Source of the DNA: an uncultured Candidatus Saccharibacteria bacterium | GTDB taxonomy: Bacteria > Patescibacteriota > Minisyncoccia > UBA6257 | Assembly (NCBI GenBank): GCA_964479005.1 | Contig: CAYZJA010000002.1 | Coordinates: forward strand, 64,001 to 128,000 | Direction of reading: 5' to 3' | Length of the DNA stretch: 64,000 nt | In this document: one piece after another, positions 1 to 27,282 of the stretch | Numbering within the stretch: the first letter of the stretch is position 1 | How the letters are laid out: the number at the start of each line of letters is the position of its first letter | Program-made: the position numbers and the translations under genes | Notes under the pieces: generated by a model | What the model was told of the DNA's origin: nothing | The model's input: only the letters and a program-made list of their open reading frames with translations | The model's database searches: none

Positions 1-714
1 TTAAGTAGCACCATACCAGCATCCTTCAGTAATACAATAATCACTGCCTGGATATGAACCATATCCAGTTGCTTCCATTAAAGATACATGGAGATGATTT
101 CCCTCATCTAATACTGCCAATCCAGCTTTATTAAATTCTGCTATTATTTTTTTATTATCTTCAGAACTATTTGAAACTGAATCTATATCTACACAAGTGC
201 CATCAAGATGACAATCATCGGCTCTCCTTGGCGTATAACTTGTACTATTGCATTCAGCGTCAATACAGGCATCATTTACCCACCACTTCGGATTTATATC
301 TTTTAATAGAAGTAATTTATTTGCTAACGTGGAATCTAAATAAGCTTCTGATTGACCAAATGTATTATCATTTATTGGAATCCCCATATCTCTTATATTA
401 ACTAAATTTTTTGATATAGCCTGATCTTCTGTAGTAACTTCTAGGGTAACTTCTGATGAGGGCAGGGTTATTGTATCAGAAGAACCTTTTAGAATATCAG
501 GATTGATAGTATAAAGAATAATATAAAAAGCAAACAATAAAAGAAGTCCAATAATGGCGCCTGTGATTCTTTCTTGGGCGTCTTTTTGTTGGGCAGTATT
601 ACCTCCAGAAGTAAGGTATTGAAAACCAGCATAAACAATCATGGCAAAAGCTAAAATTCCAGCGAGGCGAAAAGCCCACCAAATAAAAGTCTCGATTAAG
701 CTTATTGGAGTCAT
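1..714 (-). CDS. VirB2/TrbC-like pilin module (signal/TM helix, 'VYAGFQYLTSGGN', second hydrophobic helix) fused to a C-terminal Zn peptidase M15-like domain
   Basis: The N-terminal ~75 aa match the pilin-like module shared with ORFs 33971-34312, 34589-35092 and 35099-36412. The C-terminus has 'CHLDGTCVDID' (H-x2-G-x3-D) and 'EGNHLHV' (E-x-x-H), as in VanY/peptidase M15 zinc sites. The stop codon lies at window position 1-3, so the ORF is complete. Confidence 0.55.
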   Translation of the reverse strand: MTPISLIETFIWWAFRLAGILAFAMIVYAGFQYLTSGGNTAQQKDAQERITGAIIGLLLLFAFYIILYTINPDILKGSSDTITLPSSEVTLEVTTEDQAISKNLVNIRDMGIPINDNTFGQSEAYLDSTLANKLLLLKDINPKWWVNDACIDAECNSTSYTPRRADDCHLDGTCVDIDSVSNSSEDNKKIIAEFNKAGLAVLDEGNHLHVSLMEATGYGSYPGSDYCITEGCWYGAT

Positions 715-723
715 AAGTTTTTA

Positions 724-1419
724 TTAAAATTGAGTAACATCGCCAGGATTAACTAGTCCAGGAATTCCTATTTCCCATTGGTAAGATTCAAAAATAGGAT
801 ATTCAATTGACTGTATGTTTGGTGGAGCTGGTGGTTCTGGCAATGTTTGCAGAAATGTCTGCAGAATTTCATTTAAAATTATTGGGCATATTTGGGTAAT
901 AAGAATAGCCATTGAGGTGCCAACTGTTGTGCCAAAAACCATTATATTTGCAGTTGCATCTGAAAGTGATTTACAGATATGCTCAATATCTACATGTTTA
1001 AGTAATAAATCTAAAATCCAACTTTTGACAAGTCCTGAAATATCATTATTTCCGTTTATTGCGCTTATAACCAATAATTTTAAGTCTTCTGGAATTACTT
1101 CATTATTCTGTATGATATTTATGAGTTCGTCTTTAACAGTATCTGTAATGTTCCCGTCATTTTGTATTGAGTTTATGAGATATGGTTTTAAATCTTCTGG
1201 AATCTCTTGACTGTTCTGTATTATGTTTATAAGTTCATTTTGAGTAAGTTCTGCTAATTCTGCGCCATCATTAAGGTTTGTTATTGTATCTAAGACCCCT
1301 TGTGGATCCAAAAAAGCCTGAGTTTGTATTGGGACTAAAAATAAACCACCTAATCCCAAATTTAATATCAAAACAATTAATACTATAGCCTTTGTTTTTT
1401 TGAAGATATTTTTAAGCAT
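724..1419 (-). CDS. secreted/membrane-anchored protein with internal ~20-aa repeats (NELINIIQNxxIPEDLK)
   Basis: N-terminal hydrophobic signal/TM, then three copies of an ELINIIQN..(E/V)IPEDLK repeat. Lies in a co-directional operon with the T4SS genes. Confidence 0.5.
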   Translation of the reverse strand: MLKNIFKKTKAIVLIVLILNLGLGGLFLVPIQTQAFLDPQGVLDTITNLNDGAELAELTQNELINIIQNSQEIPEDLKPYLINSIQNDGNITDTVKDELINIIQNNEVIPEDLKLLVISAINGNNDISGLVKSWILDLLLKHVDIEHICKSLSDATANIMVFGTTVGTSMAILITQICPIILNEILQTFLQTLPEPPAPPNIQSIEYPIFESYQWEIGIPGLVNPGDVTQF

Positions 1420-1441
1420 ATTATTTTTTATTTAAAAATGA

Positions 1442-1810
1442 TTAGACTTTTTTTGGCGATGTTGCAGACGTAAGTTTAGTTACAGACGCAAGCTTAGCTG
1501 TTTTTTTTATTGCTTTTTTAACAGGTGCTGGTGATTTTTGGAGTGCATAGACAAGTATAACAGTTAAAGTGGCAATGGGCAAAATACTGGCAAATGGTAT
1601 AAGATCTAATGCTTGACCAATAAAAATCCATGTACCTCTTATTCCGCTGATAAGTGTAATAACAAAGATATAAATGACGAGAGGCAGGACAATAACCCAA
1701 ACAAAGAGGTTAATTCCAGGAATAAATCCCAAAAAGATTTCTATAACATCTTTAATAATGGATGTTATAAGCAAGAATAAAAATATTGTTAAGCTCATTT
1801 TATTTTTCAT
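1442..1810 (-). CDS. small polytopic membrane protein (T4SS cluster)
   Basis: Three to four hydrophobic helices and a basic C-terminus; separated from its neighbours by small gaps. Confidence 0.45.
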   Translation of the reverse strand: MKNKMSLTIFLFLLITSIIKDVIEIFLGFIPGINLFVWVIVLPLVIYIFVITLISGIRGTWIFIGQALDLIPFASILPIATLTVILVYALQKSPAPVKKAIKKTAKLASVTKLTSATSPKKV

Positions 1811-1820
1811 AGAATAATAT

Positions 1821-3611
1821 TTATTCTTTTTTGAACTCCTCTTTAGCTTTCCTAATATCTATAAGTTGAGCTGGGTTTGAGGTAATAATTTGGTCTTCAG
1901 CATAAGAAGCGATAATCTGAATGGCAGCATGTTTGTCTTCTGCAAAAAAGAGACCTGTGCCAACAGAAGCTTGCAAAAGGATGGTTTTTTCTTGTTCTGT
2001 AAGATTTAAGGCTTTGCCTATGATATCAATATTCGCAGGCGACTGTCTTAGTAAAAGGGCTAAAGCAGAGTTGGTAATTAATGGTTTTCCATAAGGTGAT
2101 TTTAAAGCGTCTTCTATGTCCTGTGTAATAAAGGTTACTCCCATATAATACTTTCGCGCTCTTTTAACTAAACCAAAAAGAAAAGACGCGCTTTCTTCGT
2201 GGCGTAACAACCACCATCCTTCATCAATTATTACAACCCTTTTTCTTAAATCCTTTTTTATCATTGTCCATATGTAATTTAATACTACATACATGGCAAT
2301 AGGCCTAAGTTCTTCTTCTAATTCTCTTACGCCAAAGATAACTAAACGATTGTTAATATTAATATTCGATGGTTGATTAAGGAAGCCAGCATAGCTTCCT
2401 TTGGTGAATTTATAAAGTTTTGCAGCTAAATCTTCGCCTCCCTCGGTATTTTTAAGAACATTCTCTAGATCTTCCATTAATGGCAGATTTTTTTTCTCAA
2501 CCATATTTTCAGGAAAAATATCCCGACTTGCGTATGTTTGTACAATGGCTCTATCTAGCATAAGTTCTTCCTGAGGAGAAAGACCTTTAAGCATTAACTT
2601 AATTAGGCCAATAAGATTTAAAATATGGTTGCGAAAAACTTCTTCGCCAGTTTCCTCTTTTTTTACTGTAGGAAGTTCAAATGGATTAATATTATCATCA
2701 GAAGCAACAGATATTTTAAAGTAGCTTCCGCCAATTGAATCAGCCAAGTATTCATACTCATTTTCCGGATCAATAATCAATACATTAGTTCCTAGTAATA
2801 ATGAACGAAGGATTTCTAATTTTATAGCATAACTTTTTCCTGCGCCAGCTTGGGCAAAAACTATCATATTTGCGTTTGGTAGAACAAAGCGGTCAAAAAT
2901 AATCAAGCTATTATTATGCAGATTAACGCCATAAAGGATTCCTTTGTTTTCTGAAAGGTCTAAAGAAGAAAAAGGGAAAAGGGTTGAAGCCGGCTGTGAA
3001 TTTAAGGGAGTAGTTAATAATAATCTATCTATTCCCAATGGTAAGGAAGATTCCATTCCTTCGAATTCTCTAAAGACAGTTGGTTTTGCGTAAATTAACT
3101 GCTGCTCTAATACATTTTTGATTTTACTTTCTATTTTTATAAGTTCCTCCTTGTCATTGGCAAAAAAAGTGATATAAACACCTACTTCAAAAAGTTTTTC
3201 ACTACCTTGTTGGATAGTATCTCTTAGTTTTTCAATATTATTTAAAGCAGCTTCTAATAAGGGGTTACGAACTAATCCTCTATCTGCTTCAATGCTTAAT
3301 TGAGCTTGAATTTCTGCAGATTTTTTTCTTAAATTTCTTAAAACCTTATTAATATTAAGAGGGTGGAAAAAGATTGAAATATTAAAAGATTCATCCAAAT
3401 TAATAATTGAGGAAAACCAATTAGAGGCTAAATAATTTGGATAAGTTAGGATAAAAAGAGTTGAACAATATTTATTTCCTAATTTGAGAAAGTTAGTATT
3501 AATTTCTAATCCAGCAGGGGAAATTAAGTCCTGAAGAGTAGAAACAGCCTGGGATTGCGCTACCACTTGCGGGTTTTTAGGTTTTCTTTTAAATAAGTTT
3601 GGAAAACGCAT
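1821..3611 (-). CDS. VirB4/TrbE/TraC-like type IV secretion ATPase
   Basis: Walker A 'FAQAGAGKSYAI' and Walker B-like 'RVVIIDEGWWLL'; ~600 aa, typical of Gram-positive/CPR VirB4 homologues. Confidence 0.8.
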   Translation of the reverse strand: MRFPNLFKRKPKNPQVVAQSQAVSTLQDLISPAGLEINTNFLKLGNKYCSTLFILTYPNYLASNWFSSIINLDESFNISIFFHPLNINKVLRNLRKKSAEIQAQLSIEADRGLVRNPLLEAALNNIEKLRDTIQQGSEKLFEVGVYITFFANDKEELIKIESKIKNVLEQQLIYAKPTVFREFEGMESSLPLGIDRLLLTTPLNSQPASTLFPFSSLDLSENKGILYGVNLHNNSLIIFDRFVLPNANMIVFAQAGAGKSYAIKLEILRSLLLGTNVLIIDPENEYEYLADSIGGSYFKISVASDDNINPFELPTVKKEETGEEVFRNHILNLIGLIKLMLKGLSPQEELMLDRAIVQTYASRDIFPENMVEKKNLPLMEDLENVLKNTEGGEDLAAKLYKFTKGSYAGFLNQPSNININNRLVIFGVRELEEELRPIAMYVVLNYIWTMIKKDLRKRVVIIDEGWWLLRHEESASFLFGLVKRARKYYMGVTFITQDIEDALKSPYGKPLITNSALALLLRQSPANIDIIGKALNLTEQEKTILLQASVGTGLFFAEDKHAAIQIIASYAEDQIITSNPAQLIDIRKAKEEFKKE

Positions 3612-3614
3612 ATT

Positions 3615-4295
3615 TTATTTATTAAATTCTTCTGGAATATTTATGGATTCTCTTTCAAAAGCTTCTGGGTTGTATGAATTGAAAAATAATTCAATCAGTT
3701 CTTTAGTAGTTAATGGTCGTGATTGTAATCCCATTCTAGTTAAATTCGTAATGATATTATTTTGTCTGATTATTAATTGTTGATAATGCTGACGAAAGCT
3801 TTCATCAGAAAGAGGGATTGTGGCGGAAAATGCCTGGTGCCTTAAATTAAGCAATGTTTTATAAGCTTCTAATATTTGGCTTAACGCGGTCTTTGGTTTA
3901 ATCATAATGGGGTCATAGGGCACTATTACATAGAATTTCTTTTTCATAATATTGTTTCCAGTAACAAGTCCTTTAATGAATGTATAATAATCCTCTCCTT
4001 GCAGTTTAAGCAGATTATTTGTTTCTTGACCAATCTTTTCCTGAAGAAAATTTAAATATGATTCAATATTAACGCGCCTAGAATGAGCTACAACTTGCAA
4101 TGGAAAATCTAAGTTATTTATAAGATTACGCCAGCTCATTAACACGGAAGATTGTTCTTCTTCTGATTTTAAATCAAAATTTATACCTGATACTTCTAAA
4201 ACCGAACGGAGCGAACCGTTTTTAAGAATAACTACCCCTTTTCTAATTTGTTGAAGGGAAATGAGTGACTGGCTACTGAAAGTTTCTTTAGGCAT
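3615..4295 (-). CDS. hypothetical protein (T4SS cluster)
   Basis: 226-aa ORF tightly packed between the VirB3-like and VirB4 genes; no recognisable motif. Confidence 0.45.
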   Translation of the reverse strand: MPKETFSSQSLISLQQIRKGVVILKNGSLRSVLEVSGINFDLKSEEEQSSVLMSWRNLINNLDFPLQVVAHSRRVNIESYLNFLQEKIGQETNNLLKLQGEDYYTFIKGLVTGNNIMKKKFYVIVPYDPIMIKPKTALSQILEAYKTLLNLRHQAFSATIPLSDESFRQHYQQLIIRQNNIITNLTRMGLQSRPLTTKELIELFFNSYNPEAFERESINIPEEFNK

Positions 4296-4712
4296 CTATT
4301 TATCTAATATATCGGTTAATTGTTTAAGTGTTTTTTTGTCCAATTGTTTTTTAATCTGTGTTTTTACTGTGGGTTTAGGCTTTTGAGAAACAGAATAAGA
4401 TACTTTCGAAAAAGTTTTTTCTTTTTTCCATAGATAGTATTTTGGAAGCCAAAAATGTCTGATTGCGGCAATGGCGAGTGTATAAATAGGAACACTATGG
4501 ATTTTCCCAAATGCGAGAGAAAAACCGACTGGAGCGAGAATCATTGCTAAAATTAACCAAAGCCATGGTTTTAAAACAGAAAAAAGTAAAAGGAGGAGTC
4601 CTCCAAAAGATAATAAAATCCATAATTGGGTAAAGGTAATCCAACCCATTAATTTTGTTTCCTCTTTTATAAATTGAGGCACTTGATAAGTCATATTTTT
4701 AAGCTTTACCAA
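4296..4712 (-). CDS. VirB3/PrgI-like small membrane protein
   Basis: 138 aa with two adjacent TM helices and a basic tail; sits upstream of VirB4 in the same operon. Confidence 0.45.
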   Translation of the reverse strand: MVKLKNMTYQVPQFIKEETKLMGWITFTQLWILLSFGGLLLLLFSVLKPWLWLILAMILAPVGFSLAFGKIHSVPIYTLAIAAIRHFWLPKYYLWKKEKTFSKVSYSVSQKPKPTVKTQIKKQLDKKTLKQLTDILDK

Positions 4713-5589
4713 AAGGACTTTTTTTCTGATATTTTTTATAAGGAATAGGCTTTTGGATAGTAGGCGTTTCTTCTTTTTTTTCTTTTTCCTTTTTTAATTT
4801 AACGTCAAGGATATATGGTTTTTCTTTTTTAGTTTTCACAAAAACTTCTTCATCCTCAAATTCTTTTCCTTCACCGCTTAAAATTTTAGAGGGCGTTAAT
4901 TCTCCTATTCTTTTCTTTTCTAATATTTCCTTTTCTTCTCTTTTTGCTTCTTTGGGCGATGGGGGTTTTAAAGAGACTTTTTTCATTTCTTCAACAATCT
5001 TCGGTTGGACGGGTTTTCTCTGCATTGCCGCCAATAGCTTTGCTCTGATTTTTTCTTGTTGTTCTGAAGAAATTTTTGGAGCAACAACTTTTTTTAATTC
5101 CTCTATTTTACTAACTGGTTTTTCCACTTTTACTTCAGATGGTTCAGGCAAAGAATATTCAGGAATAATTGGTTCAGAAGGCATTTGTTCTGTAATGGTT
5201 TGTTCAATTTTTTCTTTCGTAATAGGCTTTATCTTTGAGGGCTTTTGCGGAATTCTTTGCTCTAAAGGTTGAGGTTTGTATTGGTTCAATTCTTTCTCAA
5301 ATATTTTAAAGATTTTTCCTTCAATTACTTTGTTAACAATTTGAGCTGCTACTGGAGAAATATTAATTCTTCTTTCTAATTCATTTTTGAATTGATCTTT
5401 AGATAATTGAAAAGATAAAATTTCTGTTATGATGTCCATAACACTAGAAAATTTTTCAGATGAAACTTTGCCCAAATTTAAAGCATCATCTATAATTGCC
5501 CCCATCTTGTCAGAGGCCAAAAAGTCCTGAATACGAAATGGAAGTTTATTGAATGATTTTAAGAATTTGTTTTTGTTCGTTTCTTCCAT
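4699..5589 (-). CDS. Lys/Glu-rich hypothetical protein (T4SS cluster)
   Basis: 296 aa, highly charged; overlaps the next gene by 14 nt, consistent with translational coupling. Confidence 0.45.
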   Translation of the reverse strand: MEETNKNKFLKSFNKLPFRIQDFLASDKMGAIIDDALNLGKVSSEKFSSVMDIITEILSFQLSKDQFKNELERRINISPVAAQIVNKVIEGKIFKIFEKELNQYKPQPLEQRIPQKPSKIKPITKEKIEQTITEQMPSEPIIPEYSLPEPSEVKVEKPVSKIEELKKVVAPKISSEQQEKIRAKLLAAMQRKPVQPKIVEEMKKVSLKPPSPKEAKREEKEILEKKRIGELTPSKILSGEGKEFEDEEVFVKTKKEKPYILDVKLKKEKEKKEETPTIQKPIPYKKYQKKSPFGKA

Positions 5590-5603
5590 ATTCCTCAGTA
5601 AGA

Positions 5604-7820
5604 TTAAAAAGGCAAAAATTCTGCCAAGAAACGATTTTTGTCGTATTTTCTTCTTTTGAGCTCTTGTTTAACAGTTTCTTCATTTCCGTGGATTTTGTCT
5701 TGGACAGATTTTACAAGTTTTTGTGCCCATTTTGTTTGTTTTTCAGTATCATTTGTTGACCTAAGCATAGCAGCAAAATTTCCAGCTGGAAGATTTTTAT
5801 CTAAAAGAGTATAGAAAAATCGATTGGTATGCTGTGGTCCTTTTTCTTCTAATCTTTCAAGAATGTTTTCCCAATTACCTAATTTTATATCATCAGGCGA
5901 AGATTTTAGCAGTTGTTCTGCTATAAGATTAGTGATAACACGATTTTTAGCTTCATCACGAGAGACTCCATGGAATCTTCGCTTCATCTGTTCTATTGCT
6001 TTGTCCATATCTTCAGGTTTTGTAAAGTATTTAGCATGAAGTTCTGGATGAATTTTTTTAATTCCTGAAACATTTAAATTAGGTTGATTTTTAGCTATTT
6101 CGATGAACTTGCTATCTTTTTTATAATCCAGTGATTCTTTTCCTATTAATGTGTTAACACCCAAAGCCATTCTTCCCCCATCTGTCTTATGTGCTTCCAT
6201 ATCAACTCTAATTTGATCTGGGCTTCTTCCTTTATAATCTTCTTCAATTTGTTTTAGTTCAGCTTCGCGAACTTTCCTAGGCTGCCTACCCATCCAAACC
6301 CCTATGTCATGTGTAGGCGCAAATTTGCTGTCTTCTAATTTTTTCTGAGCTTTTCTCCATGGTTCTGAGCTTACGGCTCCTTTTAATGCTTTATGACCAA
6401 GGAAGGCGCCAGCTACTGCTCCAGCCTTAGTAGTTTGTTTCATAACTAATTGAGATGCTGCTCCTCCGCTTTGGAGGGAGAAAATTAATCCTCCTACCAA
6501 AAACATAGAGAATAAAATCATTTGCACTATTGTTGAAGTTACAGAGTCTGCGCCGATTGATATTTGACTCATTCCACTCATTGCTATTATAGCAATATAC
6601 AGTATAAAACTAAAAATAACAGGAAAAAAACACCATTTTATAAATTGTTGCCACCACATTTTCCAATATTTTTCTGTATCTGGGAAAATCCAACAAGCAA
6701 AAACGATAGGGGATAAACCTAGAAGCATAATTAAAATGAATGCTCTGAAAATTATTGTCAAGAAAATAGCAAGCAAAGCAATAACAGCAAAACCTCCAAC
6801 CAATATCATTATAAAGCTGATTATGAAAAAGTTACCAAAACGTAGGCTATAACTCTCTACTTCCGTTGCTGCTGTTGTAGTTGCTGTACCAGTATCTCCA
6901 AGACCTAGAATTTTTGGCGTTTCATATTTATCCTCGCCAAATAAAACAGGAGGATCAAATGTTTTTGTATCCGCTGATTGTTGTTCTTGTTCAATATAAC
7001 TAAAACTTTCCATTATACGAGGGGCAAGGCTTTCATTTTTTTCTTGAGCAATGTTTAGAAAATATACTGAGAGATAATTAGAAGTATCTACTATGATTCC
7101 TGATATAACTAAACTGAAGTTTACTAACAAAGCAACAAGTATTAATTTCCAAAGGATTTGTTTCCAAGCATATTTTTTATAACCAAGAATAGTTGCGATA
7201 GCAATACCTATTAACCCTAAAACTAAAAGTGCGTTAACTAAATTGCGCATCATTTCCCATATTTGTATAACACCATCATTTGTAGCAAATCCGCCATAAG
7301 TTTTCGGATTTAACGCTTTTAATATCCAGCCTATTTCTAAATCTATTAATCCAGCAAACATTTTACCCAAACCTTCAAGTATGGCTTTTGTAGTAACACA
7401 CCACATGTCTGCAATCACTACTTTTATTTCGCATCCAAGCGCATCTAACCCCCAACCATACCTCGCTGCGCATTCCTGCATTCCCTCTTCAAAGTTCTTC
7501 TTACAAAGACCTTCTGGCCTTTCTTCTTGAAGTCTGGTTTTTATTGTCTGTGCTCCATGTCTTATCTCTGTTGTCCCAGGTTCAGGATTTGGAATACAAC
7601 ATTGCTCACTACCAAATCCAGGACAACTCAAAGAAGATTCAATGTAATCTTCTAAATCACTACATTTTGTTGTCTTTTTAACAACACATGTACCTCCTGC
7701 TTCTTCGCAGTCAGACCCAGCTCTTACTTGTGAAATATCAGTTTTTAAAACAGGGCTGATTAGTAATGTAAGAATAACTATGCTAAAAACCCCAATTTTT
7801 AATATATTTTTTGTTTTCAT
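5604..7820 (-). CDS. VirB6/TrbL-like polytopic membrane protein with Cys-rich N-terminal ectodomain and C-terminal soluble domain
   Basis: Signal peptide, about seven TM helices in the central region, and a Thr-rich linker 'TGTATTTAATE'; first gene of the minus-strand T4SS operon. Confidence 0.55.
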   Translation of the reverse strand: MKTKNILKIGVFSIVILTLLISPVLKTDISQVRAGSDCEEAGGTCVVKKTTKCSDLEDYIESSLSCPGFGSEQCCIPNPEPGTTEIRHGAQTIKTRLQEERPEGLCKKNFEEGMQECAARYGWGLDALGCEIKVVIADMWCVTTKAILEGLGKMFAGLIDLEIGWILKALNPKTYGGFATNDGVIQIWEMMRNLVNALLVLGLIGIAIATILGYKKYAWKQILWKLILVALLVNFSLVISGIIVDTSNYLSVYFLNIAQEKNESLAPRIMESFSYIEQEQQSADTKTFDPPVLFGEDKYETPKILGLGDTGTATTTAATEVESYSLRFGNFFIISFIMILVGGFAVIALLAIFLTIIFRAFILIMLLGLSPIVFACWIFPDTEKYWKMWWQQFIKWCFFPVIFSFILYIAIIAMSGMSQISIGADSVTSTIVQMILFSMFLVGGLIFSLQSGGAASQLVMKQTTKAGAVAGAFLGHKALKGAVSSEPWRKAQKKLEDSKFAPTHDIGVWMGRQPRKVREAELKQIEEDYKGRSPDQIRVDMEAHKTDGGRMALGVNTLIGKESLDYKKDSKFIEIAKNQPNLNVSGIKKIHPELHAKYFTKPEDMDKAIEQMKRRFHGVSRDEAKNRVITNLIAEQLLKSSPDDIKLGNWENILERLEEKGPQHTNRFFYTLLDKNLPAGNFAAMLRSTNDTEKQTKWAQKLVKSVQDKIHGNEETVKQELKRRKYDKNRFLAEFLPF

Positions 7821-7853
7821 AATATTAAATTAATGTTTAATATATTTTCTTTA

Positions 7854-8669
7854 TTATACAATATTTTTGATTAACAAGGAAGAAAGAGAAATCCATTCTT
7901 TTATGGAAAGATTTTGCGCCCTTGTATTTAGCGGCATGTTTAATTGTATGAATATTTTTTGGAGAACGTCTCTTTTTATACTGAGATTTTTGGAGAGATT
8001 ATTTATAAGCAATTTTCTTGGTTGCTTAAAACCAGCTTTTATAACTTTGAAAAAAGATTGCGGAGTTTGCCCGCCTAAATTTTGTTTCAAAATTTTAGCG
8101 GGTAAAGGAGTTATTTTAATAACAGCAGAGTCTACTTTAGGTTCTGGATAAAAAGCGGTTCTTGGAACATAGCAAATGATTTCTGGTTTTGCATAAAATT
8201 GTACAGAAGCGGATAGAAGATTCATTTTTGGTGGTTGAGCTATTATTCTTTCAGCCACCTCTTTTTGAATCATTAAAACTATTAATTTAGGTTTAATTGG
8301 ATTTTCTAAAAGTAAACGCAAAAGTCGCGAAGTTAAATAATAAGGAATATTGCCGATGGCCTTGTATTCAGTATTCAGTATTCTGTATTCAGTGTTTTGG
8401 AGGAAGTCTCGAATATCTCCTTGGATAATTTTTAAATTTAATTTGTCTTTAAAGTAATCTTTCAGGAATTTTACTAATTCTGGGTCTTTTTCAACAGCGA
8501 TTATTTCAGCACCAGTTTTCAAAAAAGCTTGAGTTAAAATGCCCTTTCCTGGTCCAATTTCTAAAATTTGATCTTTGGAGTTGATATCTGCTGCTTGGAT
8601 AATCTTTTGTATAGTCTCCTCGTCCTTAAGGAAAACTTGCCCTAATTTTTTTTGTTTTCTTGTTATCAT
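7854..8669 (-). CDS. ksgA: 16S rRNA (adenine1518/1519-N6)-dimethyltransferase KsgA/RsmA
   Basis: 'KKLGQVFLKD', SAM-binding motif 'ILEIGPGKGILT' and 'NIPYYLTS'. Confidence 0.85.
   Translation of the reverse strand: MITRKQKKLGQVFLKDEETIQKIIQAADINSKDQILEIGPGKGILTQAFLKTGAEIIAVEKDPELVKFLKDYFKDKLNLKIIQGDIRDFLQNTEYRILNTEYKAIGNIPYYLTSRLLRLLLENPIKPKLIVLMIQKEVAERIIAQPPKMNLLSASVQFYAKPEIICYVPRTAFYPEPKVDSAVIKITPLPAKILKQNLGGQTPQSFFKVIKAGFKQPRKLLINNLSKNLSIKRDVLQKIFIQLNMPLNTRAQNLSIKEWISLSSLLIKNIV
8364..8392. repeat. ~4 tandem copies of the heptamer GTATTCA (3 x 7 = 21-nt periodicity) inside ksgA
   Basis: Sequence 'gtattcagtattcagtattctgtattcag'; it encodes the duplicated 'NTEYRILNTEYKA'. Confidence 0.6.
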
Positions 8670-8736
8670 ATAGATTTTGACAAAAGTATTTATAATGGTA
8701 AAATAGAAAGGTAATTAAAATAATTATATAAAAATA

Positions 8737-9420
8737 ATGAATAAAAAAACATATACAAATTTGGTCATCATTGGTCTGGCCATAATAGCAATTGTCGCAG
8801 TCTTGCTTGTAAGAAGTAGGGGAAATCAAAATATTTATACTGGATTCTTAAAACCTGGAGAAGGCGCTTGGTCTGAAATTATGAATAGTGCAGAAAACTC
8901 ACAAAGGATAGTTTATTTAGGAGAAAAGATTGTTCATAATACACGAGCATATGGAATAGAAATTGAGTCAATTGTTTCTGAAAATGAAAGTGCTGTTACG
9001 CAGGTATGGCGGGACAGAGAATCAAATGAAATAGTGGAGATTGTTAGTAAACTAAAAGGGAAAAGCGAAGTTATTTGCGTAAACGATTCTTTAATGGAAA
9101 TACTTATACCTTCATTTAGTTCTTTGCTTCCAGCAATAAAAACACCAGAAAAATATAGTTTAAATAATGAATATACTTATGGTACTTTTACTACTAATAC
9201 CGGAAAAACAATTCAAATAGCGAAGCTCATGGACGAAAACGATATTGAGATATGGATTAGCAGTGAAGTTCCGTTTGGTATTGTAAAAATTGTAAATAAC
9301 ACAACAGGAGAAATCACAGCTTATTTACAGGATTTTGGTTTGACTGGAGGCAAGGCAAAGATTTCAGAAACAGAAATGCTTAATTGCAAAAAGATAAATT
9401 TTCCTAATTTAACAGAATAG
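8737..9420 (+). CDS. hypothetical N-terminally anchored exported protein
   Basis: N-terminal TM 'LVIIGLAIIAIVAVLLV'; followed by an 11-bp-stem hairpin at 9443-9471. Confidence 0.45.
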   Translation: MNKKTYTNLVIIGLAIIAIVAVLLVRSRGNQNIYTGFLKPGEGAWSEIMNSAENSQRIVYLGEKIVHNTRAYGIEIESIVSENESAVTQVWRDRESNEIVEIVSKLKGKSEVICVNDSLMEILIPSFSSLLPAIKTPEKYSLNNEYTYGTFTTNTGKTIQIAKLMDENDIEIWISSEVPFGIVKIVNNTTGEITAYLQDFGLTGGKAKISETEMLNCKKINFPNLTE

Positions 9421-9471
9421 ACTAAAAGATATATTTTGTTTACCCCGTTAGAAGTATTGTTTCTGACGGGG

Positions 9472-9499
9472 TTGACATTCAAACTAATCTTGATAGAAT
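9472..9499 (+). promoter_or_regulatory. sigma70-like promoter GGGG-TTGACA-N16-TAGAAT
   Basis: 'acggggTTGACAttcaaactaatcttgaTAGAAT'; lies upstream of the LysM/M23 gene. Confidence 0.45.
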
Positions 9500-9606
9500 T
9501 ATTGATAAGGCCTTTAAGAAGGCTTTTTTAATAACATTTATTCTAAATTACCATTTTTACCTGGAAAGCACAACTTAATAAAGGTATAAAAAGCGCCAAT
9601 TATTTA

Positions 9607-10686
9607 ATGTCCTTATCTTTATTAAAGATAGCAATTGGTTTGTTTTTGATTTCTTTGTTTTTCGGCAATTCTTATCTTTCTTCCCAAATTATGTTTCTTC
9701 AAAAAGAGGGGGAAGAGTTTTTAATAAAAGAAGACGGTTGCCCCATAATTTTAGAAGGCAGTTCATTTGCTAAGACGGCTTATGCCTACAGTGAATGCTT
9801 AAGTGCGGACGGAAGTCAAATTATTGAGGGCGATTTTGAAACGTATGACCCAGCCCAACAGAATTTTTTGATTATTATAAACAGCGATAGTTTTTTGGGA
9901 ATTAATTCCCCTGTTAAATTTTTATTGCCTTCATCTCAGCGCCATACAGTTTTTTCCTATGTAGTGCAGGAAGGAGATACGCCGGGTAGAATTGCGGCAA
10001 ATTTTGGAGTAAGTTTAAATACTATTTTATGGGCTAATGATTTAAAATCCAGCTCTATAATTAAACCCAATCAGGAACTCATTATTCTTCCAATTTCAGG
10101 AGTAATGCATACAGTCAAAAAAGGAGACACATTACTTTCTATAGCCAAAAAATACAGGGCATCATCTGATGAAATATTTGTTTTTAATGATTTAAAAGAT
10201 GAAGGTTCTATAAAAATCGGCCAAGAACTTATCATTCCAAGTGGTCGGCTTTCTTCAGCCACTTCTCTATCATTATCTGCTGGGCTTAAACCTATGATAA
10301 TTGATATTAGTCATTGGCCAGAGATTGATGGCTTTTTTGCTTATCCTACTTCCTTCGGCTTGAATAGAGGGATTTTCCACTATTATAATGCCGTTGATAT
10401 TGTGAGTTCTTGTGGAAGTCCTATTTATGCTGCTGCTGATGGAATGGTAGTTGAAGCTAAAGGAACAGGAAGATATAATTACGGTTATGGTAATTTAGTT
10501 AAGATTCAACATTATAACGGCACTACGACTGTTTATGGCCATCTAAGCGGATTATCTGTAAAAGAAGGAGATAAGGTTTATCAAGGAGATCTAATAGGAA
10601 AGATGGGTGACACAGGCAATGCTGAATGTTGTCATCTTCATTTTGAAGTCAGAGGAGCCCAGAATCCTTTTGTAAAAAGACGATAG
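9607..10686 (+). CDS. LysM-domain peptidase M23 (cell-wall endopeptidase)
   Basis: Two LysM motifs ('YVVQEGDTPGRIAANFGVS', 'HTVKKGDTLLSIAKKY') plus M23 motifs 'YGHLS' and 'GDTGNAECCHLHFEV'. Confidence 0.8.
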   Translation: MSLSLLKIAIGLFLISLFFGNSYLSSQIMFLQKEGEEFLIKEDGCPIILEGSSFAKTAYAYSECLSADGSQIIEGDFETYDPAQQNFLIIINSDSFLGINSPVKFLLPSSQRHTVFSYVVQEGDTPGRIAANFGVSLNTILWANDLKSSSIIKPNQELIILPISGVMHTVKKGDTLLSIAKKYRASSDEIFVFNDLKDEGSIKIGQELIIPSGRLSSATSLSLSAGLKPMIIDISHWPEIDGFFAYPTSFGLNRGIFHYYNAVDIVSSCGSPIYAAADGMVVEAKGTGRYNYGYGNLVKIQHYNGTTTVYGHLSGLSVKEGDKVYQGDLIGKMGDTGNAECCHLHFEVRGAQNPFVKRR

Positions 10687-10692: not shown

Positions 10693-12237
10693 TTAATATT
10701 CATTCCAAGAAAATTCCGTTTTATATTGCAATGCTTCGGCAACGTGATTAAACTTAATTGTTTCTGTATTTTCTAAATCAGCTATTGTCCGGCTGATTTT
10801 TAAAATTCTGTGATAGGATCGAGCTGATAAAGAATATTTGTTGATAGCCTTTTTTAGTAAGATTTCCGCTTGTTGCTCTACTTGGCAAAATTCATTTATT
10901 TCTTTTATTTTCATTTCCCCGTTAGTAGACATACTAGGATTAATATTAATGAATCTTTGTTCTTGTATTTTACGGGCAGTAATAATCTTTTGTTTTATTT
11001 CTTCCGAGGTTTCTAGGGGGATATTGCTCTTTATTTCTTTAAATGATAAACGCGGTACATCAATAATAATATCGATTCTATCCAAAAGTGGGCCAGAAAT
11101 CTTTTTTCTATATCTAATTATATCTCCAGGGCGGCAGACGCATTCTTTATGCGAATCACCAAAATAGCCACATGGGCAGGGATTCATTGCCGCTATTAAA
11201 ATAAATTTAGCTGGAAAAGTGATTCTGTTTTGGACGCGGGATACGCAAATTTTCCCCTCTTCTAGTGGCTGCCTAAGGCTTTCCAAAACATCTCTTTTGA
11301 ATTCTGGCAATTCATCCAGAAAAAGGATTCCGCAATGAGCTAAAGTAATTTCCCCGGGCATCGGATGCGTTCCCCCTCCAATTAGCGCAGCTGACGACGC
11401 AGTATGATGCGGAGAACGAAAAGGACATTGCGTAATTAATGGTTGAGAAGGCGGGAGCAATCCGCTAATACTGTGAATTTTAGTCACTTCAAGGCATTTT
11501 TCCATGCTCATTGGTGGGAGAATAGAGAGAAAGGCTTTGGCTAGCAGAGTTTTTCCCGAACCAGGCGGACCTATCATTAAAATATTATGATTTCCGCTGG
11601 CAGCGACAACAAGCGCCCTTTTTGCTCTGGCTTGCCCCTTTATTTGAGAAAAATCCATCTCTTTATTAAAAGCACTGGGAAAATTCTTAGGGGCTTTATA
11701 AGGAGAAAGATTAATTTTGTTTTCTAAAAAAGAAATAAGTTCTTTAAGGTTTTTTATTCCAATAACTTTTAGATTTTTTGCAGCCATAGCCGCTTCGGCA
11801 GCATTTTTAGAAGGAACGAAAATATATTCATAACCGTTTTTTTCTGCCCACATAGCAATAGCTAAAACTCCGCGTACTGGTTTTACCAATCCTTCTAATG
11901 TTAATTCTCCAACGAAAATCTTTTTTTCAGGAGAAAAAGGAATAATTTGTTCAGAAGCCAAAAGATAGCCTAATGCAATAGCTACATCATAATAAGAGCC
12001 GTATTTTTTCATATTAGCTGGCGCTAAATTAATAGTAATTTTCCTATTTGCTCTTAAAGGAGATTTAGCTCCAATATTTTTTATTGCGGCTGATACTCTT
12101 TGCTTGGCTTCTTTAATAGAAATATCTGGTAAGCCGATTATATTAAAAGAATGAAGTCCATTAGATACATCAACTTCTACTTCAATTAAAGTAGTTTCTA
12201 AACCAAAAAGAGCGGCAGAGTAAATTTTAGACAACAT
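10693..12237 (-). CDS. comM: Mg-chelatase-like AAA+ protein ComM/YifB
   Basis: N-terminal 'MLSKIYSAALFGLE..IEVEVD', Walker A 'GPPGSGKT', and C-terminal ChlI-like region. Confidence 0.85.
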   Translation of the reverse strand: MLSKIYSAALFGLETTLIEVEVDVSNGLHSFNIIGLPDISIKEAKQRVSAAIKNIGAKSPLRANRKITINLAPANMKKYGSYYDVAIALGYLLASEQIIPFSPEKKIFVGELTLEGLVKPVRGVLAIAMWAEKNGYEYIFVPSKNAAEAAMAAKNLKVIGIKNLKELISFLENKINLSPYKAPKNFPSAFNKEMDFSQIKGQARAKRALVVAASGNHNILMIGPPGSGKTLLAKAFLSILPPMSMEKCLEVTKIHSISGLLPPSQPLITQCPFRSPHHTASSAALIGGGTHPMPGEITLAHCGILFLDELPEFKRDVLESLRQPLEEGKICVSRVQNRITFPAKFILIAAMNPCPCGYFGDSHKECVCRPGDIIRYRKKISGPLLDRIDIIIDVPRLSFKEIKSNIPLETSEEIKQKIITARKIQEQRFININPSMSTNGEMKIKEINEFCQVEQQAEILLKKAINKYSLSARSYHRILKISRTIADLENTETIKFNHVAEALQYKTEFSWNEY

Positions 12238-12863: not shown

Positions 12864-12902
12864 TAAAAACAACCCATTAATTAATTAATGAGTTGTTTTT
12901 TT
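12864..12902. terminator. bidirectional rho-independent terminator
   Basis: 'aaacaaccca-ttaattaattaa-tgagttgtt' stem followed by T7. Confidence 0.5.
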
Positions 12903-13160
12903 AATATCCGTTACTATCTTTTTTGTTTCTTCCATCATAATCTCTTGTAGATTTCCCAGGTAGTCATGCAAGAAATTATTTTTTTCTTCTTCATTATCAG
13001 AATTGAATATTTTTGCCATCATTGCTTTTTTTTCGTTATCTAAATTTTTATAAGCTCGCATTAATGAACGTTCTAATATAGTGTCATATATAGTGTCATA
13101 TAATTGTGAAACCGTGCTTTTCATTTCTGGAGGAAGATTGTTTAAAAATTTTTGTTGCAT
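12885..13160 (-). CDS. hypothetical small protein
   Basis: 91-aa ORF with no recognisable motif. Confidence 0.4.
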   Translation of the reverse strand: MQQKFLNNLPPEMKSTVSQLYDTIYDTILERSLMRAYKNLDNEKKAMMAKIFNSDNEEEKNNFLHDYLGNLQEIMMEETKKIVTDIKKTTH

Positions 13161-13195: not shown

Positions 13196-14551
13196 TCATT
13201 TTTTCTCTTTCTTTTTACCTCCTCCGGCTTGTCCTATCAAATAATCTTCTCCCTTCATCAGAAGTCCAATAAAAAGAATTAAGATTAATGTAACAAACCA
13301 ACCAGCTGCTCCAAAAGCTGTTCCCCATGCAGATTCTTTTTTCTCAATATGTTCTTTTGCTTTTGTGATAGAATCTGGGACTTCTTCTTTTTGTTTTGTT
13401 ATCTTTTCTATTGTTTTTCTAAGCGCTTGAAATTCTTTTGTGTTTATGAGTTTTTGAACTTTTTCCTTTGTCTTTGGATCCTCAAAAAAGTTAACCAGTT
13501 CGGGCAGAACCTTGGATACTGCTTCTTTGTCAAACCCAAATTTTTTTAATTGTTCTATAATTATTTCATCTGGCGGTAATTTGTCGTGTTTCATATCTTT
13601 CTTTAGATCCTGTAAAGATTGTTTCTTCTTTTCAATTGATTCTTTCTCTATATCTGCTATTTCTGCTATAGTTTTTGACTTAATATCTGGGTTTTCTATA
13701 TTTTTAACAATAACATCAACATTGCCTTTAAAAGGTATATCTTCTGAGGCTAAAATCTGGGCTATTTCTTTGAAGGTTTTATCCTTTGAATAAAAAATAT
13801 TCTCTTTTTCTAATTGTCCATTAACAAAATTTTTTATTATTTTCAGTTTTTCTTTATCCTCAAGACCCCACTCTTTATAGTCTAAGGCCATAGTTAAGCC
13901 AACTTTGTTAACTGTTTGTGCCTTTTTTAAATCATAAAGAAATATCGATGGCTCTAATCTATTAAGTTCTGAGAAAATATTTTGGATGCCTTTATAATTA
14001 TCTAAATAGGCTGTGTCTGTCCAGTCGTCGATTAATTTAAAGTATCTTTCCGTTTTTTCTTTTTTTAATTTTTTAGTATCACATGGCATTTGCTTGATTT
14101 TTTCCAGTTCATCATAATATTCCTCTGTAATCTCTCTTTCTAAATCCTCTTTTTCCTTTTCTTTTTCTCCTTTTTTCTTTTTTGGACCCTCTTTCTTCCC
14201 AGGTTTTTTTCCTTCTGGTTTTACCTCCTTTTCTTCTTTTCCCCCCGGAGTTTCTTTAGTCTGTTTGTCTAGTGTGGTATATTTTATTTCTAACTCCTTC
14301 TTTTTTTGTATGTCGTCGGGACTAAGATATTCTTTATCATCTAATTTCTTTAATTCTTCTTCTAATGATGTTAATTCTTTATCAGTCTCTTCCTTTTTTG
14401 CATGGTCACCTTCTTTATCCTGTTCTGTTGATTCAGCGCTTTTCTCCTCAGCAGGTTTTCTCCAGATACCATTTTCAAGAACCCATCCAGGATAGGGAGG
14501 TTGTTCTTTAGATGGTTCTAATGGAGTATTTGGTATTTGTTCAAATCTCAT
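13196..14551 (-). CDS. highly charged coiled-coil-like protein with C-terminal TM anchor
   Basis: K/E-rich 451 aa ending in 'GAAGWFVTLILILFIGLLM' and a basic tail. Confidence 0.5.
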   Translation of the reverse strand: MRFEQIPNTPLEPSKEQPPYPGWVLENGIWRKPAEEKSAESTEQDKEGDHAKKEETDKELTSLEEELKKLDDKEYLSPDDIQKKKELEIKYTTLDKQTKETPGGKEEKEVKPEGKKPGKKEGPKKKKGEKEKEKEDLEREITEEYYDELEKIKQMPCDTKKLKKEKTERYFKLIDDWTDTAYLDNYKGIQNIFSELNRLEPSIFLYDLKKAQTVNKVGLTMALDYKEWGLEDKEKLKIIKNFVNGQLEKENIFYSKDKTFKEIAQILASEDIPFKGNVDVIVKNIENPDIKSKTIAEIADIEKESIEKKKQSLQDLKKDMKHDKLPPDEIIIEQLKKFGFDKEAVSKVLPELVNFFEDPKTKEKVQKLINTKEFQALRKTIEKITKQKEEVPDSITKAKEHIEKKESAWGTAFGAAGWFVTLILILFIGLLMKGEDYLIGQAGGGKKKEKK

Positions 14552-22534: not shown

Positions 22535-23701
22535 ATGCCCAAAGTAAAATGTAGAGTTTGCAAAAAGATATTCTATATCAAATCCAATTGGCTTAAAAGA
22601 GGATGGGGAAAATATTGTTCGAGGAAATGTCAGTACAAATCCCAATTGAAAGGAAAATTTGTGGTTTGCGCCTATTGCGGTAGAAGGGTATATCGATCAC
22701 TTGCTGAATTGCGCAGAAAATCTAAGGCAGGAGTTTATTTTTGTAATTTATCCTGTCATTGCGCTTGGAAAAATAAACAAAGGAAAAGTAAGGGAAGATT
22801 TAAATTACAAAATTTATGGGGACCGTGGTGTAATAGTAGCACTAGGACCTGTGGCGTCCTCGGTACGGATGCAAATTCCGTCGGTCCCCCATTTTTCTTT
22901 CTAAAATTCTTAAAGCCCAAGAAGAAAAAAAATAATCTTTTATTTCTTAAGCGGCCACCAAAGAAAATTCTTTATCATTTTTATTGGAAAAAGAATTATA
23001 CCCAAACAGAGATAGCTAAAATTTTTAATGCCACCCACACTAGCGTGAAAAGATGGTTTAATTATTATAAAATCATGGTGAAGTACCGAACTCTATCTTG
23101 TGGCCATAATCCCAATATTTTAAGAAATTTAAAATTAGGTCGTACAGATAAAGCTATTAGAAAATCGGCAGAAGCAAGAAGAATTTATTCAAAAGAAAAA
23201 CTTATTGAAAAAATAAAAGAATTTGTACAAAAAGAAGAAAGAATTCCTACAAAGAACGAATTTATTAATAATTCCTCTTATCCAGATTATGTCACTTACA
23301 GGCATTATTTTGGCACTTGGAATAATGCCATCAAGACAGCGGGCTACAAGCCAAATGAACAATGGTTTGCCTCAGGACATTTATTTGCTAAAGATGGGCA
23401 CAAATGTAATTCAATTTCAGAAATAATCATTGACGATTGGTTTTTTGAAAATGATATTTCTCATACGAGAGAGTGTTTATACCCAGAAGGACGATATCGC
23501 TGTGATTTTATGGTTGGCAATACTTTTATTGAATTTTTTGGTTTATTTAATGCTTCCATTGTTAACCCAAGTTATATTGAAATCGTTAAAAGAAAAAAAG
23601 AAATATGTAAGAAATTTAATATTGTCCTCATTGAACTCTATGAGAAGGATCTTTATAAATTAGATCAATCCTTGGGAGCAAAGATTGGATTAAAAGTATA
23701 A
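22535..23701 (+). CDS. composite ORF: 2x zinc-ribbon N-terminus, HTH, 'YRHYFGTWNNAIKTAG' motif and a DUF559/Vsr-like PD-(D/E)xK endonuclease-like C-terminus; contains a tRNA-His-like sequence in-frame
   Basis: N-terminal 'CRVCKK..YCSRKC' and 'CAYCGR..CNLSCHC'. HTH 'YTQTEIAKIFNATHTSVKRW'. C-terminal 'SEIII..RYRCDFMV..IEFFG..KKFNIVLIEL' resembles DUF559. A 388-codon open frame is unusual in AT-rich DNA, but codons 95-119 coincide with a GC-rich tRNA-like cloverleaf, so the true start or boundaries are uncertain. Confidence 0.4.
   Translation: MPKVKCRVCKKIFYIKSNWLKRGWGKYCSRKCQYKSQLKGKFVVCAYCGRRVYRSLAELRRKSKAGVYFCNLSCHCAWKNKQRKSKGRFKLQNLWGPWCNSSTRTCGVLGTDANSVGPPFFFLKFLKPKKKKNNLLFLKRPPKKILYHFYWKKNYTQTEIAKIFNATHTSVKRWFNYYKIMVKYRTLSCGHNPNILRNLKLGRTDKAIRKSAEARRIYSKEKLIEKIKEFVQKEERIPTKNEFINNSSYPDYVTYRHYFGTWNNAIKTAGYKPNEQWFASGHLFAKDGHKCNSISEIIIDDWFFENDISHTRECLYPEGRYRCDFMVGNTFIEFFGLFNASIVNPSYIEIVKRKKEICKKFNIVLIELYEKDLYKLDQSLGAKIGLKV
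22818..22889 (+). tRNA. tRNA-His(GTG)-like cloverleaf with non-canonical D- and T-loops
   Basis: G-1:C73 and acceptor GGGACCG/CGGTCCC. Anticodon stem AGGAC/GTCCT with loop CTGTGGC. T-stem ACGGA/TCCGT with loop TGCAAAT (no TTC). D-loop AATAGTA (no GG). Confidence 0.5.
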
Positions 23702-26448: not shown

Positions 26449-26538
26449 ATTTTTATGTTTTTATTTCTATATTAAAGATTTCCATAATATTATCACATAA
26501 AGATATAACTGTCAAGGAGTAATGGATTTAGCATGGAC

Positions 26539-26566
26539 TTGACAAATCACAAAAATGTAGTATAAT
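26539..26566 (+). promoter_or_regulatory. consensus promoter TTGACA-N16-TATAAT
   Basis: 'gacTTGACAaatcacaaaaatgtagTATAATtta'. Confidence 0.5.
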
Positions 26567-26633
26567 TTAATTAACATCTTAGTATTTTAGCATCATTGAT
26601 AATTTAATAAATGAAAAAAAGGAGATAGATAGA

Positions 26634-26762: not shown

Positions 26763-26802
26763 GAGAGATAAAGAAAGAAATAAAAAAAAGGAGGAAAAAG
26801 AA

Positions 26803-27252: not shown

Positions 27253-27282
27253 ATAAGGGCTAAGAAGTTAGTAGTACAAAGT

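Follow-up and report, generated by a model that had tools for sequence, protein, structure and literature searches.

A probable core chromosomal type IV secretion operon of a Paceibacteria bacterium, with a pilin hairpin joined to a predicted zinc peptidase

The stretch of DNA considered here, 64 kb of the 551,616-bp contig CAYZJA010000002.1 and hereafter called the window, begins with a compact operon for a type IV secretion system (T4SS). It is likely that this locus is the vertically inherited, chromosomal T4SS of a Paceibacteria bacterium whose genome measures ~0.55 Mb, that it is of the Patescibacteria type and a derivative of the mating-pair-formation class FATA (MPF-FATA), and that it is not mobile. 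The reading as a core system rather than as an integrative and conjugative element (ICE) is preferred because position and gene order recur across the Paceibacteria, and because the VirB4 ATPase seems to be as conserved as DnaA.

The operon covers positions 1-7820 and consists of eight open reading frames (ORFs), all on the minus strand and separated by intergenic gaps of 0-22 nt. They are numbered in the order of transcription, g1 to g8, and are followed in this list by the gene that precedes them:

5604-7820, minus strand: g1, extended VirB6/TrbL-like polytopic membrane protein, 738 aa
4699-5589, minus strand: g2, Lys/Glu-rich soluble protein, 296 aa
4296-4712, minus strand: g3, PrgI/VirB3-like small membrane protein, 138 aa when read from TTG, 132 aa with the ATG at 4694 that gene callers choose
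3615-4295, minus strand: g4, detached VirB4 N-terminal domain (TrsD/TraD-like), 226 aa
1821-3611, minus strand: g5, VirB4 ATPase body and motor of the system, 596 aa
1442-1810, minus strand: g6, small polytopic membrane protein, 122 aa
724-1419, minus strand: g7, secreted or membrane-associated repeat protein, 231 aa
1-714, minus strand: g8, VirB2-like pilin hairpin with a predicted LAS zinc peptidase domain, 237 aa
7854-8669, minus strand: rsmA/ksgA, 33 nt upstream of g1

From g8 to g1 the gaps measure 9, 22, 10, 3, 0, ~4 and 14 nt; with its TTG start g3 overlaps g2 by 14 nt, and its stop codon abuts the start of g4. The preliminary description of this DNA had proposed eight co-directional minus-strand genes with minimal gaps, and all eight ORFs are indeed present where it put them; the extent that it gave, 1-7820, is right for the operon itself and leaves out an array of pilin genes of the same system at 33971-36412. 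A scan of 1-9700 for promoters and terminators found fewer promoter-like sites than in shuffled sequence, no convincing minus-strand promoter and no internal terminator, and Rfam recovered only tRNAs from the whole window, with no regulatory RNA near the operon. The upstream gene rsmA may be co-transcribed with it. The view beyond the start of the window comes from contig L001, which encodes an identical VirB4: there the genes next to g8 are jag, yidC, rnpA and rpmH, which converge on it, and beyond them, ~2 kb out, comes divergent dnaA. The borders of the operon are thus housekeeping genes, rsmA on one side and the jag-yidC-rnpA-rpmH block with dnaA on the other, and GC content is uniform across the window (0.30-0.36).

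This arrangement is shared widely. One genome per species was scanned, which gave at least 599 loci confirmed by tblastn, and the locus counts in this text refer to the best 80 of these at least 599. All 80 lie in metagenome-assembled genomes (MAGs) from the candidate phyla radiation (CPR), and those with informative labels belong to Paceibacteria/Parcubacteria lineages. The gene order is constant: tblastn detected g4 in 77 loci, g3 in 65, g1 in 56 and the g8 hairpin in 49, while iterated hidden Markov models (HMMs) found g3 in 72, a pilin in 62, g2 in 61 and g6 in 49, each at a fixed position. Where enough flanking sequence was available, 42 of 47 loci have dnaA no more than 8 kb downstream, at a median distance of 5.2 kb from the end of VirB4, and 36 of 48 have rsmA upstream. 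Pairwise identities of VirB4 and DnaA run side by side (85 versus 81 %, 79 versus 76 % and ~50-57 versus 45-53 %), which suggests that VirB4 is as conserved as DnaA. Identical operon proteins occur, moreover, on several independent metagenome contigs.

The gene content of the window agrees with a core locus. ORFs of at least 110 aa were compared with Pfam, either live or through precomputed annotation, apart from a handful lying opposite annotated genes of the other strand, and no relaxase, type IV coupling protein (T4CP; VirD4, TraG or TcpA), VirB11 or integrase/recombinase was found among those scanned. Seven ORFs were checked by regular expression, six without a family match and a 91-aa ORF at 12885-13160, and none contains a Walker A/P-loop motif. 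The window ORFs that do have matches are housekeeping or surface genes, among them ClpP, trigger factor, NusA, TsaD, LeuRS, GyrA, an ABC transporter, a TrpRS/TyrRS-type synthetase, ArgRS, UppP, the CCA-adding enzyme, IF-2, PNPase, FtsH and RecG. The preliminary description, which had likewise seen no coupling protein, relaxase or VirB11, held that a full conjugative element nearby would make the locus an ordinary ICE; none is present in the 64 kb, and the flanks inspected are housekeeping genes with no integrase. Its suggestion that so minimal a set serves DNA uptake or host interaction rather than conjugation gains support from the absence of linked DNA-processing genes and from the core chromosomal position.

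Among the operon proteins the motor is taken first. By its sequence g5 is assigned to the VirB4 ATPases: it passes the equivalog cutoff of NCBIfam NF045971 (conju_CD1110, VirB4-like conjugal transfer ATPase; 356 bits, cutoff 325), and it also matches PF19044 P-loop_TraG (1.7e-24), PF12846 AAA_10, PF01935 DUF87 and PF03135 CagE_TrbE_VirB (2e-6). Its Walker A motif reads AQAGAGKS and its Walker B motif VVIIDE; the earlier identification of a VirB4 ATPase from GAGKS has come through an HMM test of family membership. More than 7800 homologues exist, 50-95 % identical across the Paceibacteria, and the close ones that bear names all come from Paceibacteria, Parcubacteria or Patescibacteria MAGs. The neighbouring g4 had been called a hypothetical protein; the ORF is real, and it can now be recognised as the detached N-terminal domain of VirB4. 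In P0117, a fused VirB4 of 788 aa, residues 4-220 are 41 % identical to g4 and residues 216-786 match g5; g4 is also recognised elsewhere, and it aligns to the N-terminal positions of the VirB4_plasma, CD1110 and VirB4_CagE models. Its match to NCBIfam NF041427 TrsD (1.2e-9) falls under the 200-bit cutoff of that model, and its precomputed Pfam annotation is PF26593 TraC-like. VirB4 is thus split into a TrsD-like N-domain (g4) and an ATPase body (g5). At the junction of the two genes (3609-3617, TAA AAT ATG) they share a frame and are set apart by TAA plus one codon; this may be coincidence, because the split is ancient, with a separate g4 in 77 of 80 loci.

The two membrane partners of the motor are recognised in different ways. 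The assignment of g3 as VirB3-like is supported by its place, since 72 of 80 loci have a member of the family directly upstream of their VirB4 genes; its match to Pfam PrgI (E 3.5e-5, 24.7 bits) stays under the gathering score of 27. The g1 protein has the VirB6 fold and is a VirB6/TrbL-type polytopic channel protein, as had been proposed for this 738-aa product. It is composed of a signal or transmembrane (TM) helix, a Cys-containing extracellular N-domain (~25-190), a five-helix VirB6 core (~194-449) and an all-helical cytoplasmic C-terminal domain (~480-738).

The last gene of the operon, g8, joins two modules. Its N-terminus matches T4SS_pilin PF18895 (32.1 bits, cutoff 26.6), and a structure model built from a 44-sequence alignment, with a predicted local distance difference test score (pLDDT) of 87, shows a two-helix hairpin (residues 3-75) that leads through a disordered linker (80-98) to a compact C-terminal domain (100-237). 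For the latter, the top 15 Foldseek matches are all Hedgehog N-domains (prob 0.96-1.0), and its top structural matches include VanY, VanX and MepA besides the Hedgehog N-domain; among PDB sequence profiles only Hedgehog N-domains were retrieved (E 0.004-0.06). Residues H169, G172, D176, E204 and H209 are invariant across g8 homologues. The arrangement H169-x6-D176, H207-x-H209 and E204 is the signature of the Hedgehog/DD-peptidase (LAS) family (PMC6027127); H207, with which H-x-H begins, varies among the homologues. Sequence identity to solved LAS members is 11-20 %, and the domain is resembled by only 13 clusters among 1.84 billion representative proteins. It differs from the known family, the MEROPS M15A-type peptidases and the Hedgehog N-domain (PMC6027127, PMC8052667), in that no Pfam family, M15 and HH_signal included, matches it even at E-values up to 10.

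Model and motif together point to a Hedgehog/DD-peptidase (LAS, M15A-like) zinc peptidase fold. The preliminary description had spoken of a fusion of a pilin module and an M15 peptidase. The PF18895 hairpin, the LAS fold and the zinc-ligand motif bear this out, and the term M15 applies at the level of superfamily, fold and motif rather than of a curated family, because fold and motif match and the Pfam M15 model does not. Encoded by the operon and with its putative peptidoglycan-active domain tethered to the membrane by the hairpin, g8 falls into the VirB1/PrgK-type class without being homologous to the SLT domain of VirB1. It is presumed to be the cell-wall hydrolase of the system; the earlier proposal that it replaces a VirB1/PrgK hydrolase holds at the level of fold and motif and is backed by hydrolase fusions in other Paceibacteria.

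These fusions emerge from the 65 operon-linked ORFs of the pilin family in the best 80 loci, 50 of which extend for at least 90 aa after the hairpin. Pfam domains in the 50 comprise VanY (3), NlpC/P60 (3), Peptidase_M15_3 (2), Peptidase_M15_4 (2) and YkuD (2), with one each of Extensin-like_C, Amidase_5, SLT and CHAP; the domain counts are pooled, and at least 8 of the 50 extended pilins are involved. A Hedgehog-like head of the g8 type is carried by only 4 of the 65. Across the Paceibacteria, the operon-linked hairpin is thus fused repeatedly to unrelated peptidoglycan-active domains, and the interpretation of g8 as a VirB1/PrgK substitute is strengthened because other Paceibacteria join the same hairpin to VanY, M15_3/4, NlpC/P60, YkuD, SLT or CHAP. 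The published survey of Patescibacteria T4SSs makes no mention of hairpin-hydrolase fusions (PMC12102498). A more speculative idea, to which we give a low probability, is that the VirB2-like hairpin is a delivery handle which places a swappable wall-cutting head in the T4SS tube, whether within it, at its tip or at its base, and that the head breaches the wall of the host rather than the cell's own. It is just as doubtful whether heads were swapped and re-split, as in g7 and g8, while lineages changed hosts. In the closest relatives g7 is 34-66 % identical, g8 55-83 % and VirB6 39-44 %, compared with 79-94 % for VirB4; fast surface parts and hydrolase swapping would be expected, and no proof, if the enzyme faced the host wall. 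If true, the system would carry a pilus-borne wall drill that opens a route for withdrawing host cytoplasmic material. The exchangeable hydrolase on a pilin is a testable handle on whose wall is cut, on what cargo the pilus carries and on how host range might be encoded.

The preceding gene, g7, had been described as encoding a secreted repeat protein, which its signal-peptide-like N-terminus and two 36-aa repeats (19 of 36 residues identical) bear out. The repeats are visible at the protein level only, as a search of 1-8000 for tandem repeats in the DNA gave short, low-scoring rows only. The protein ends in the conserved motif YQWEIGIPG, and in many g8 homologues a g7-type end motif sits in the same protein, just before the hairpin; the form conserved at this place is Y.WE[IV]G[IVL]PG. 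In the operon itself g7 and g8 are in frame, with TAA TAA plus two codons between them (712-726, ...CAA TTT TAA TAA AAA CTT ATG). A relative whose VirB4 is 79 % identical (L011) has a single 479-aa ORF instead, composed of a signal, a variable region, WEVGLPG, the pilin hairpin and the LAS domain, and g7 corresponds, collinearly, to the N-terminal part of this one precursor. In L009 (VirB4 94 % identical) there are two genes and g8 has its own signal peptide, while L010 (VirB4 85 %) has a 166-aa pilin without peptidase domain; both encode separate g7-like proteins with the same end motif. The idea that g7 and g8 are simply a recent fission of one gene has been partly withdrawn in view of these three architectures. 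The g7 family was detected by iterated HMM in only 2 of 80 loci and evolves fast. Short g8 forms without signal peptide persist at 40-91 % identity in many lineages (P0121, P0126, P0136, P0140, P0158, P0175), which makes it probable that the split is a tolerated state and not a recent lesion.

Two further genes are conserved accessories of the Paceibacteria operon. The g2 protein, earlier noted as Lys/Glu-rich, contains 18.6 % K and 13.5 % E, has no TM segment and combines a conserved N-terminal domain of ~100 aa with a low-complexity tail; iterated HMMs recover its family from 61 of 80 loci, in each of them at a place between VirB6 and PrgI. The g6 protein is a small membrane protein, as had been stated, with 3-4 hydrophobic helices and a basic tail, and 49 of 80 loci have a member of its family, in every case directly downstream of VirB4 and at a median gap of ~30 nt. 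Neither g2 nor g6 has a match in Pfam, NCBIfam or PDB sequence profiles. A pilin-like nature of g6 was considered and discarded, since hhalign found it unrelated to the pilin profile.

Two other genes are frequent in the relatives and absent here. The first, designated 'mid' and present in 64 of 80 loci, stands between g6 and the pilin gene and encodes a beta-rich membrane protein with no significant match among PDB sequence profiles; the second, present in 49 loci, comes after the pilin gene and encodes a membrane-anchored TolB-like propeller (TolB, E 1e-12). Both lie downstream of VirB4 in relatives L012-L088, for example at L013:12081-12779 and L013:13609-14724. The system could be a reduced one, because these two genes are missing from it. 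A 437-aa pilin encoded elsewhere in the window was ruled out as a relocated ninth operon gene; the ninth gene is the TolB-like propeller, of which the window holds no homologue.

This 437-aa pilin belongs to a distal array of three genes, which is part of the same T4SS and brings the PF18895 proteins of the window to four:

33971-34312, minus strand: pilin 1, 113 aa, signal peptide and hairpin (PF18895, E 3.4e-12)
34589-35092, minus strand: pilin 2, 167 aa, signal peptide, spacer, hairpin and acidic tail (PF18895, 6.5e-8; TrbC/VirB2 PF04956, 2.9e-4)
35099-36412, minus strand: pilin 3, 437 aa, signal peptide, hairpin, acidic linker and repeated Cys-rich extracellular modules (PF18895, 9.7e-9)

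The hairpins of the array are 28-35 % identical to that of g8. The 113-aa protein, 28 % identical to the g8 pilin module with the common positions VY.G...G...K...A.IG, is most likely the subunit of the pilus shaft. Of the 437-aa protein the hairpin alone matches other loci, and its C-terminal part has no match in Pfam. A Cys-rich module (...EC.DG..L....C.......GW.C.F.G....GTL..YC...) is found twice in this protein, in residues ~190-400; it resembles an insert between hairpin and peptidase in g8 homologues P0130, P0134 and P0139 and appears to be a shuffled extracellular module. The array lies ~26 kb from the operon and is abutted by an Hsp20 gene (33387-33779). The same adjacency is seen for SEML1_0020 of the Saccharibacterium Southlakia epibionticum, which hints at an ancestral linkage of T4SS, pilins and hsp20 that has been broken here.

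How such a machine may work can be pictured from established T4SS biology and the papers cited below. VirB4 (g4 and g5) would dock on VirB3 (g3) and VirB6 (g1) and form a translocon in the membrane with them. It would then power the extraction of VirB2-like pilins, supplied by the stand-alone pilin genes, and their polymerisation into a pilus or tube. The hairpin-tethered LAS peptidase would cut peptidoglycan cross-links locally, in the role of VirB1/PrgK, in the cell's own wall and possibly in that of the host. The tube would contact a host bacterium and serve an epibiotic lifestyle. As to its use, our leading though tentative choice is a conduit for the acquisition of host macromolecules. 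This use is favoured because no coupling protein was found, because the T4SS is essential in the auxotroph S. epibionticum and because of reported observations on tubes and RNA uptake. In S. epibionticum, the one genetically tested CPR bacterium, transposon sequencing showed the T4SS and its pilin array to be essential for epibiotic growth (Wang 2023, Cell; PMC10633639), and for a cultivated relative a preprint reports tubes that extend toward the host envelope and, by cryoEM, apparently penetrate it, together with uptake of host RNA (bioRxiv 10.64898/2026.06.21.733656).

The traffic might instead run outwards, the machine being an exporter of effectors or toxins which injects them into the host bacterium or releases proteins, like the Gram-positive 89K or the diderm effector T4SSs. 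We regard this as possible and somewhat unlikely. Wang et al. suggest that the T4SS of S. epibionticum 'may instead export proteins' (PMC10633639), and the faster evolution of the surface parts (g7, g8 and VirB6) than of VirB4 is what host-facing machinery should display. However, the operon has neither a coupling protein nor a substrate receptor linked to it, and its surroundings hold only housekeeping flanks, with no candidate effector gene in or adjoining it; the known T4SSs without T4CP export from the periplasm or import DNA (PMC12857230). Pure attachment to the host, with no transfer at all, is unlikely.

We rate a DNA-uptake machine for natural transformation, similar to ComB or Ced, as improbable. 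Neither T4CP nor relaxase accompanies the operon, as in ComB, a comM gene lies 3 kb away (10693-12237), and g5 weakly matches the archaeal DNA importer CedB (1.7e-11), but with 43 bits this match is far under the cutoff of 700. In S. epibionticum, furthermore, transformation requires comEC, the loss of which leaves viability unchanged, whereas the T4SS is essential (PMC10633639; PMC12857230). The essential role of the T4SS there is not transformation, because the gene needed for transformation is dispensable.

That the operon is degenerating and no longer yields a working machine, with g7 and g8 split by nonsense codons and two conserved genes lost, is more improbable still. The TAA TAA between the in-frame g7 and g8, the missing signal peptide of g8, the absence of the 'mid' and TolB-like genes and the L010 pilin gene without a peptidase domain would all fit decay. 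Yet all eight ORFs are intact, VirB4 is 94 %, 85 % and 79 % identical to that of relatives, the signal-less short forms of g8 recur in many lineages, the catalytic residues of g8 are invariant and identical proteins stand on several independent metagenome contigs. As for an ICE, active or a decayed remnant, that performs classical conjugation, its best arguments are that g5 scores highest against conjugal-transfer families of NCBIfam (CD1110, Mycoplasma ICE Mbov_0397, TraC) and that the machinery descends from MPF-FATA conjugation systems (PMC12102498); family scans of the window ORFs and the synteny survey lead us to reject it as extremely improbable, and with it classical conjugation as very unlikely, given 64 kb without relaxase, T4CP, integrase or P-loop candidate, a place that stays fixed in many species, with rsmA on one side and the yidC-rnpA-rpmH-dnaA block on the other, a VirB4 about as conserved as DnaA, uniform GC (~0.32-0.34) and relaxases in only 103 of the 3,035 genomes of the published survey (PMC12102498).

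Several points weigh against the picture of a complete, vertically inherited machine that draws on the host. What is said here on function draws on homology and on experiments with members of other CPR classes. Some Hedgehog-like domains are not active as enzymes, and both the peptidase activity of g8 and its target are predictions. The negative results cover 64 kb of a genome of ~552 kb, and a distant VirD4-like gene is possible, the more so as the survey finds many of them far from virB4 (PMC12102498). In comparisons of g2, g6 and g7 with Pfam, NCBIfam and PDB profiles no VirB8-like component with an NTF2 fold came to light, and two genes frequent in Paceibacteria operons are absent from the window. 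The matches of g3 to PrgI and of g1 to TrbL stop just short of the Pfam gathering scores. Finally, g8 without a signal peptide, at a distance of only TAA TAA from g7, could mean gene decay.

Some neighbouring features of the window deserve mention in their own right. Two genes from the operon, a protein with the architecture LysM-LysM-Peptidase_M23 is encoded at 9607-10686 (plus strand); this second cell-wall hydrolase of the neighbourhood could also serve the T4SS, and in 7 related loci a homologue of it was detected by tblastn upstream of virB4. A cluster of surface proteins at 24322-29175 comprises a 708-aa DUF11/PKD protein (24322-26448), a CAP/SCP-domain protein (27457-28443) and a sortase (28489-29175). 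Rfam confirmed 17 tRNA genes in 12759-63911, with small clusters at 48831-49089, 50604-50779 and 57857-58008; two more calls were made by ARAGORN only, tRNA-Leu at 60585-60668 and tRNA-His at 22819-22890, the latter inside an ORF (22535-23701, plus strand) with a homing-endonuclease-associated HNH_repeat. Two long ORFs have neither a family match nor a P-loop: one of 451 aa at 13196-14551 (minus strand), Lys/Glu-rich and with a C-terminal TM helix, and one of 384 aa at 54795-55949 (plus strand), Pro/Thr-rich and with a central TM helix.

Compared with known systems, the locus shares with the T4CP-less T4SSs, namely H. pylori ComB, archaeal Ced and B. pertussis Ptl, that it is driven by VirB4 and has no linked coupling protein or relaxase. 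There is no membership at the sequence level, as the CedB score illustrates, and ComB and Ptl belong to diderms and include VirB7-10. The monoderm MPF-FATA systems (pCF10 PrgH-PrgL, pGO1/pIP501 Trs/Tra, C. difficile CTn CD1110 and the Mycoplasma ICE Mbov_0395-0397) have the same order VirB6-(x)-VirB3-VirB4-hydrolase and no outer-membrane core genes, and the best NCBIfam matches of the operon are CD1110 (above cutoff), Mbov_0397, TrsD, MMCAP2_0566 and the Mbov_0395 pilin-like protein. However, the MPF-FATA systems reside on plasmids or ICEs with relaxase and T4CP, and mostly have no VirB2-like pilins, whereas the present locus is chromosomal, core and provided with pilins; their hydrolases are SLT/CHAP or NlpC/P60 enzymes on a simple TM anchor, whereas here a putative LAS peptidase sits on a pilin hairpin.

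The cluster SEML1_0006-0019 of Southlakia epibionticum ML1 (PMC10633639) has origin-proximal locus tags, PrgI (to which g3 is similar), VirB4, an array of PF18895 pilins and a VirB6-like protein with an extra helical domain, all as here, and in both genomes Hsp20 adjoins the pilin array. It belongs to another class, the Saccharimonadia, and holds six pilins inside the cluster, in contrast to the distant array of the present genome; it has an NTF2-like (VirB8-like) protein, for which no counterpart was found here, and separate genes for a peptidase and a lysozyme downstream of virB4 in place of a peptidase fused to the pilin hairpin. Essentiality has been shown for S. epibionticum only. A 2025 review singles these systems out among monoderm T4SSs for their essentiality and possible pili (PMC12857230).

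The closest fit is the Patescibacteria T4SS itself, of which the locus is a further, already published kind of example. In a survey of 3,035 Patescibacteria genomes, the VirB4 proteins form a monophyletic clade nested in MPF-FATA, TrsD, PrgI/VirB3, VirB6 and PF18895 pilins are widespread near virB4, T4CPs are mostly far from it, and Paceibacteria loci lie close to dnaA, dnaN, rnpA, ksgA and rpmH (Quinonero-Coronel 2025, Microb Genom; PMC12102498). The present operon has the same VirB4, TrsD, PrgI/VirB3-like, VirB6 and PF18895 pilin components, the same want of relaxase and linked T4CP and the same placement near dnaA, rnpA, rpmH and ksgA/rsmA. It differs in the hairpin-hydrolase fusion, the g2 and g6 families and the g7/g8 architecture, none of which the survey describes, and in lacking two genes common in its class. 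The locus therefore adds no new kind of system; it offers a clean, compact eight-gene Paceibacteria example with origin-adjacent housekeeping flanks, of a T4SS that is the first reported to be essential for its carrier and whose substrate is key to how CPR epibionts feed on their hosts.

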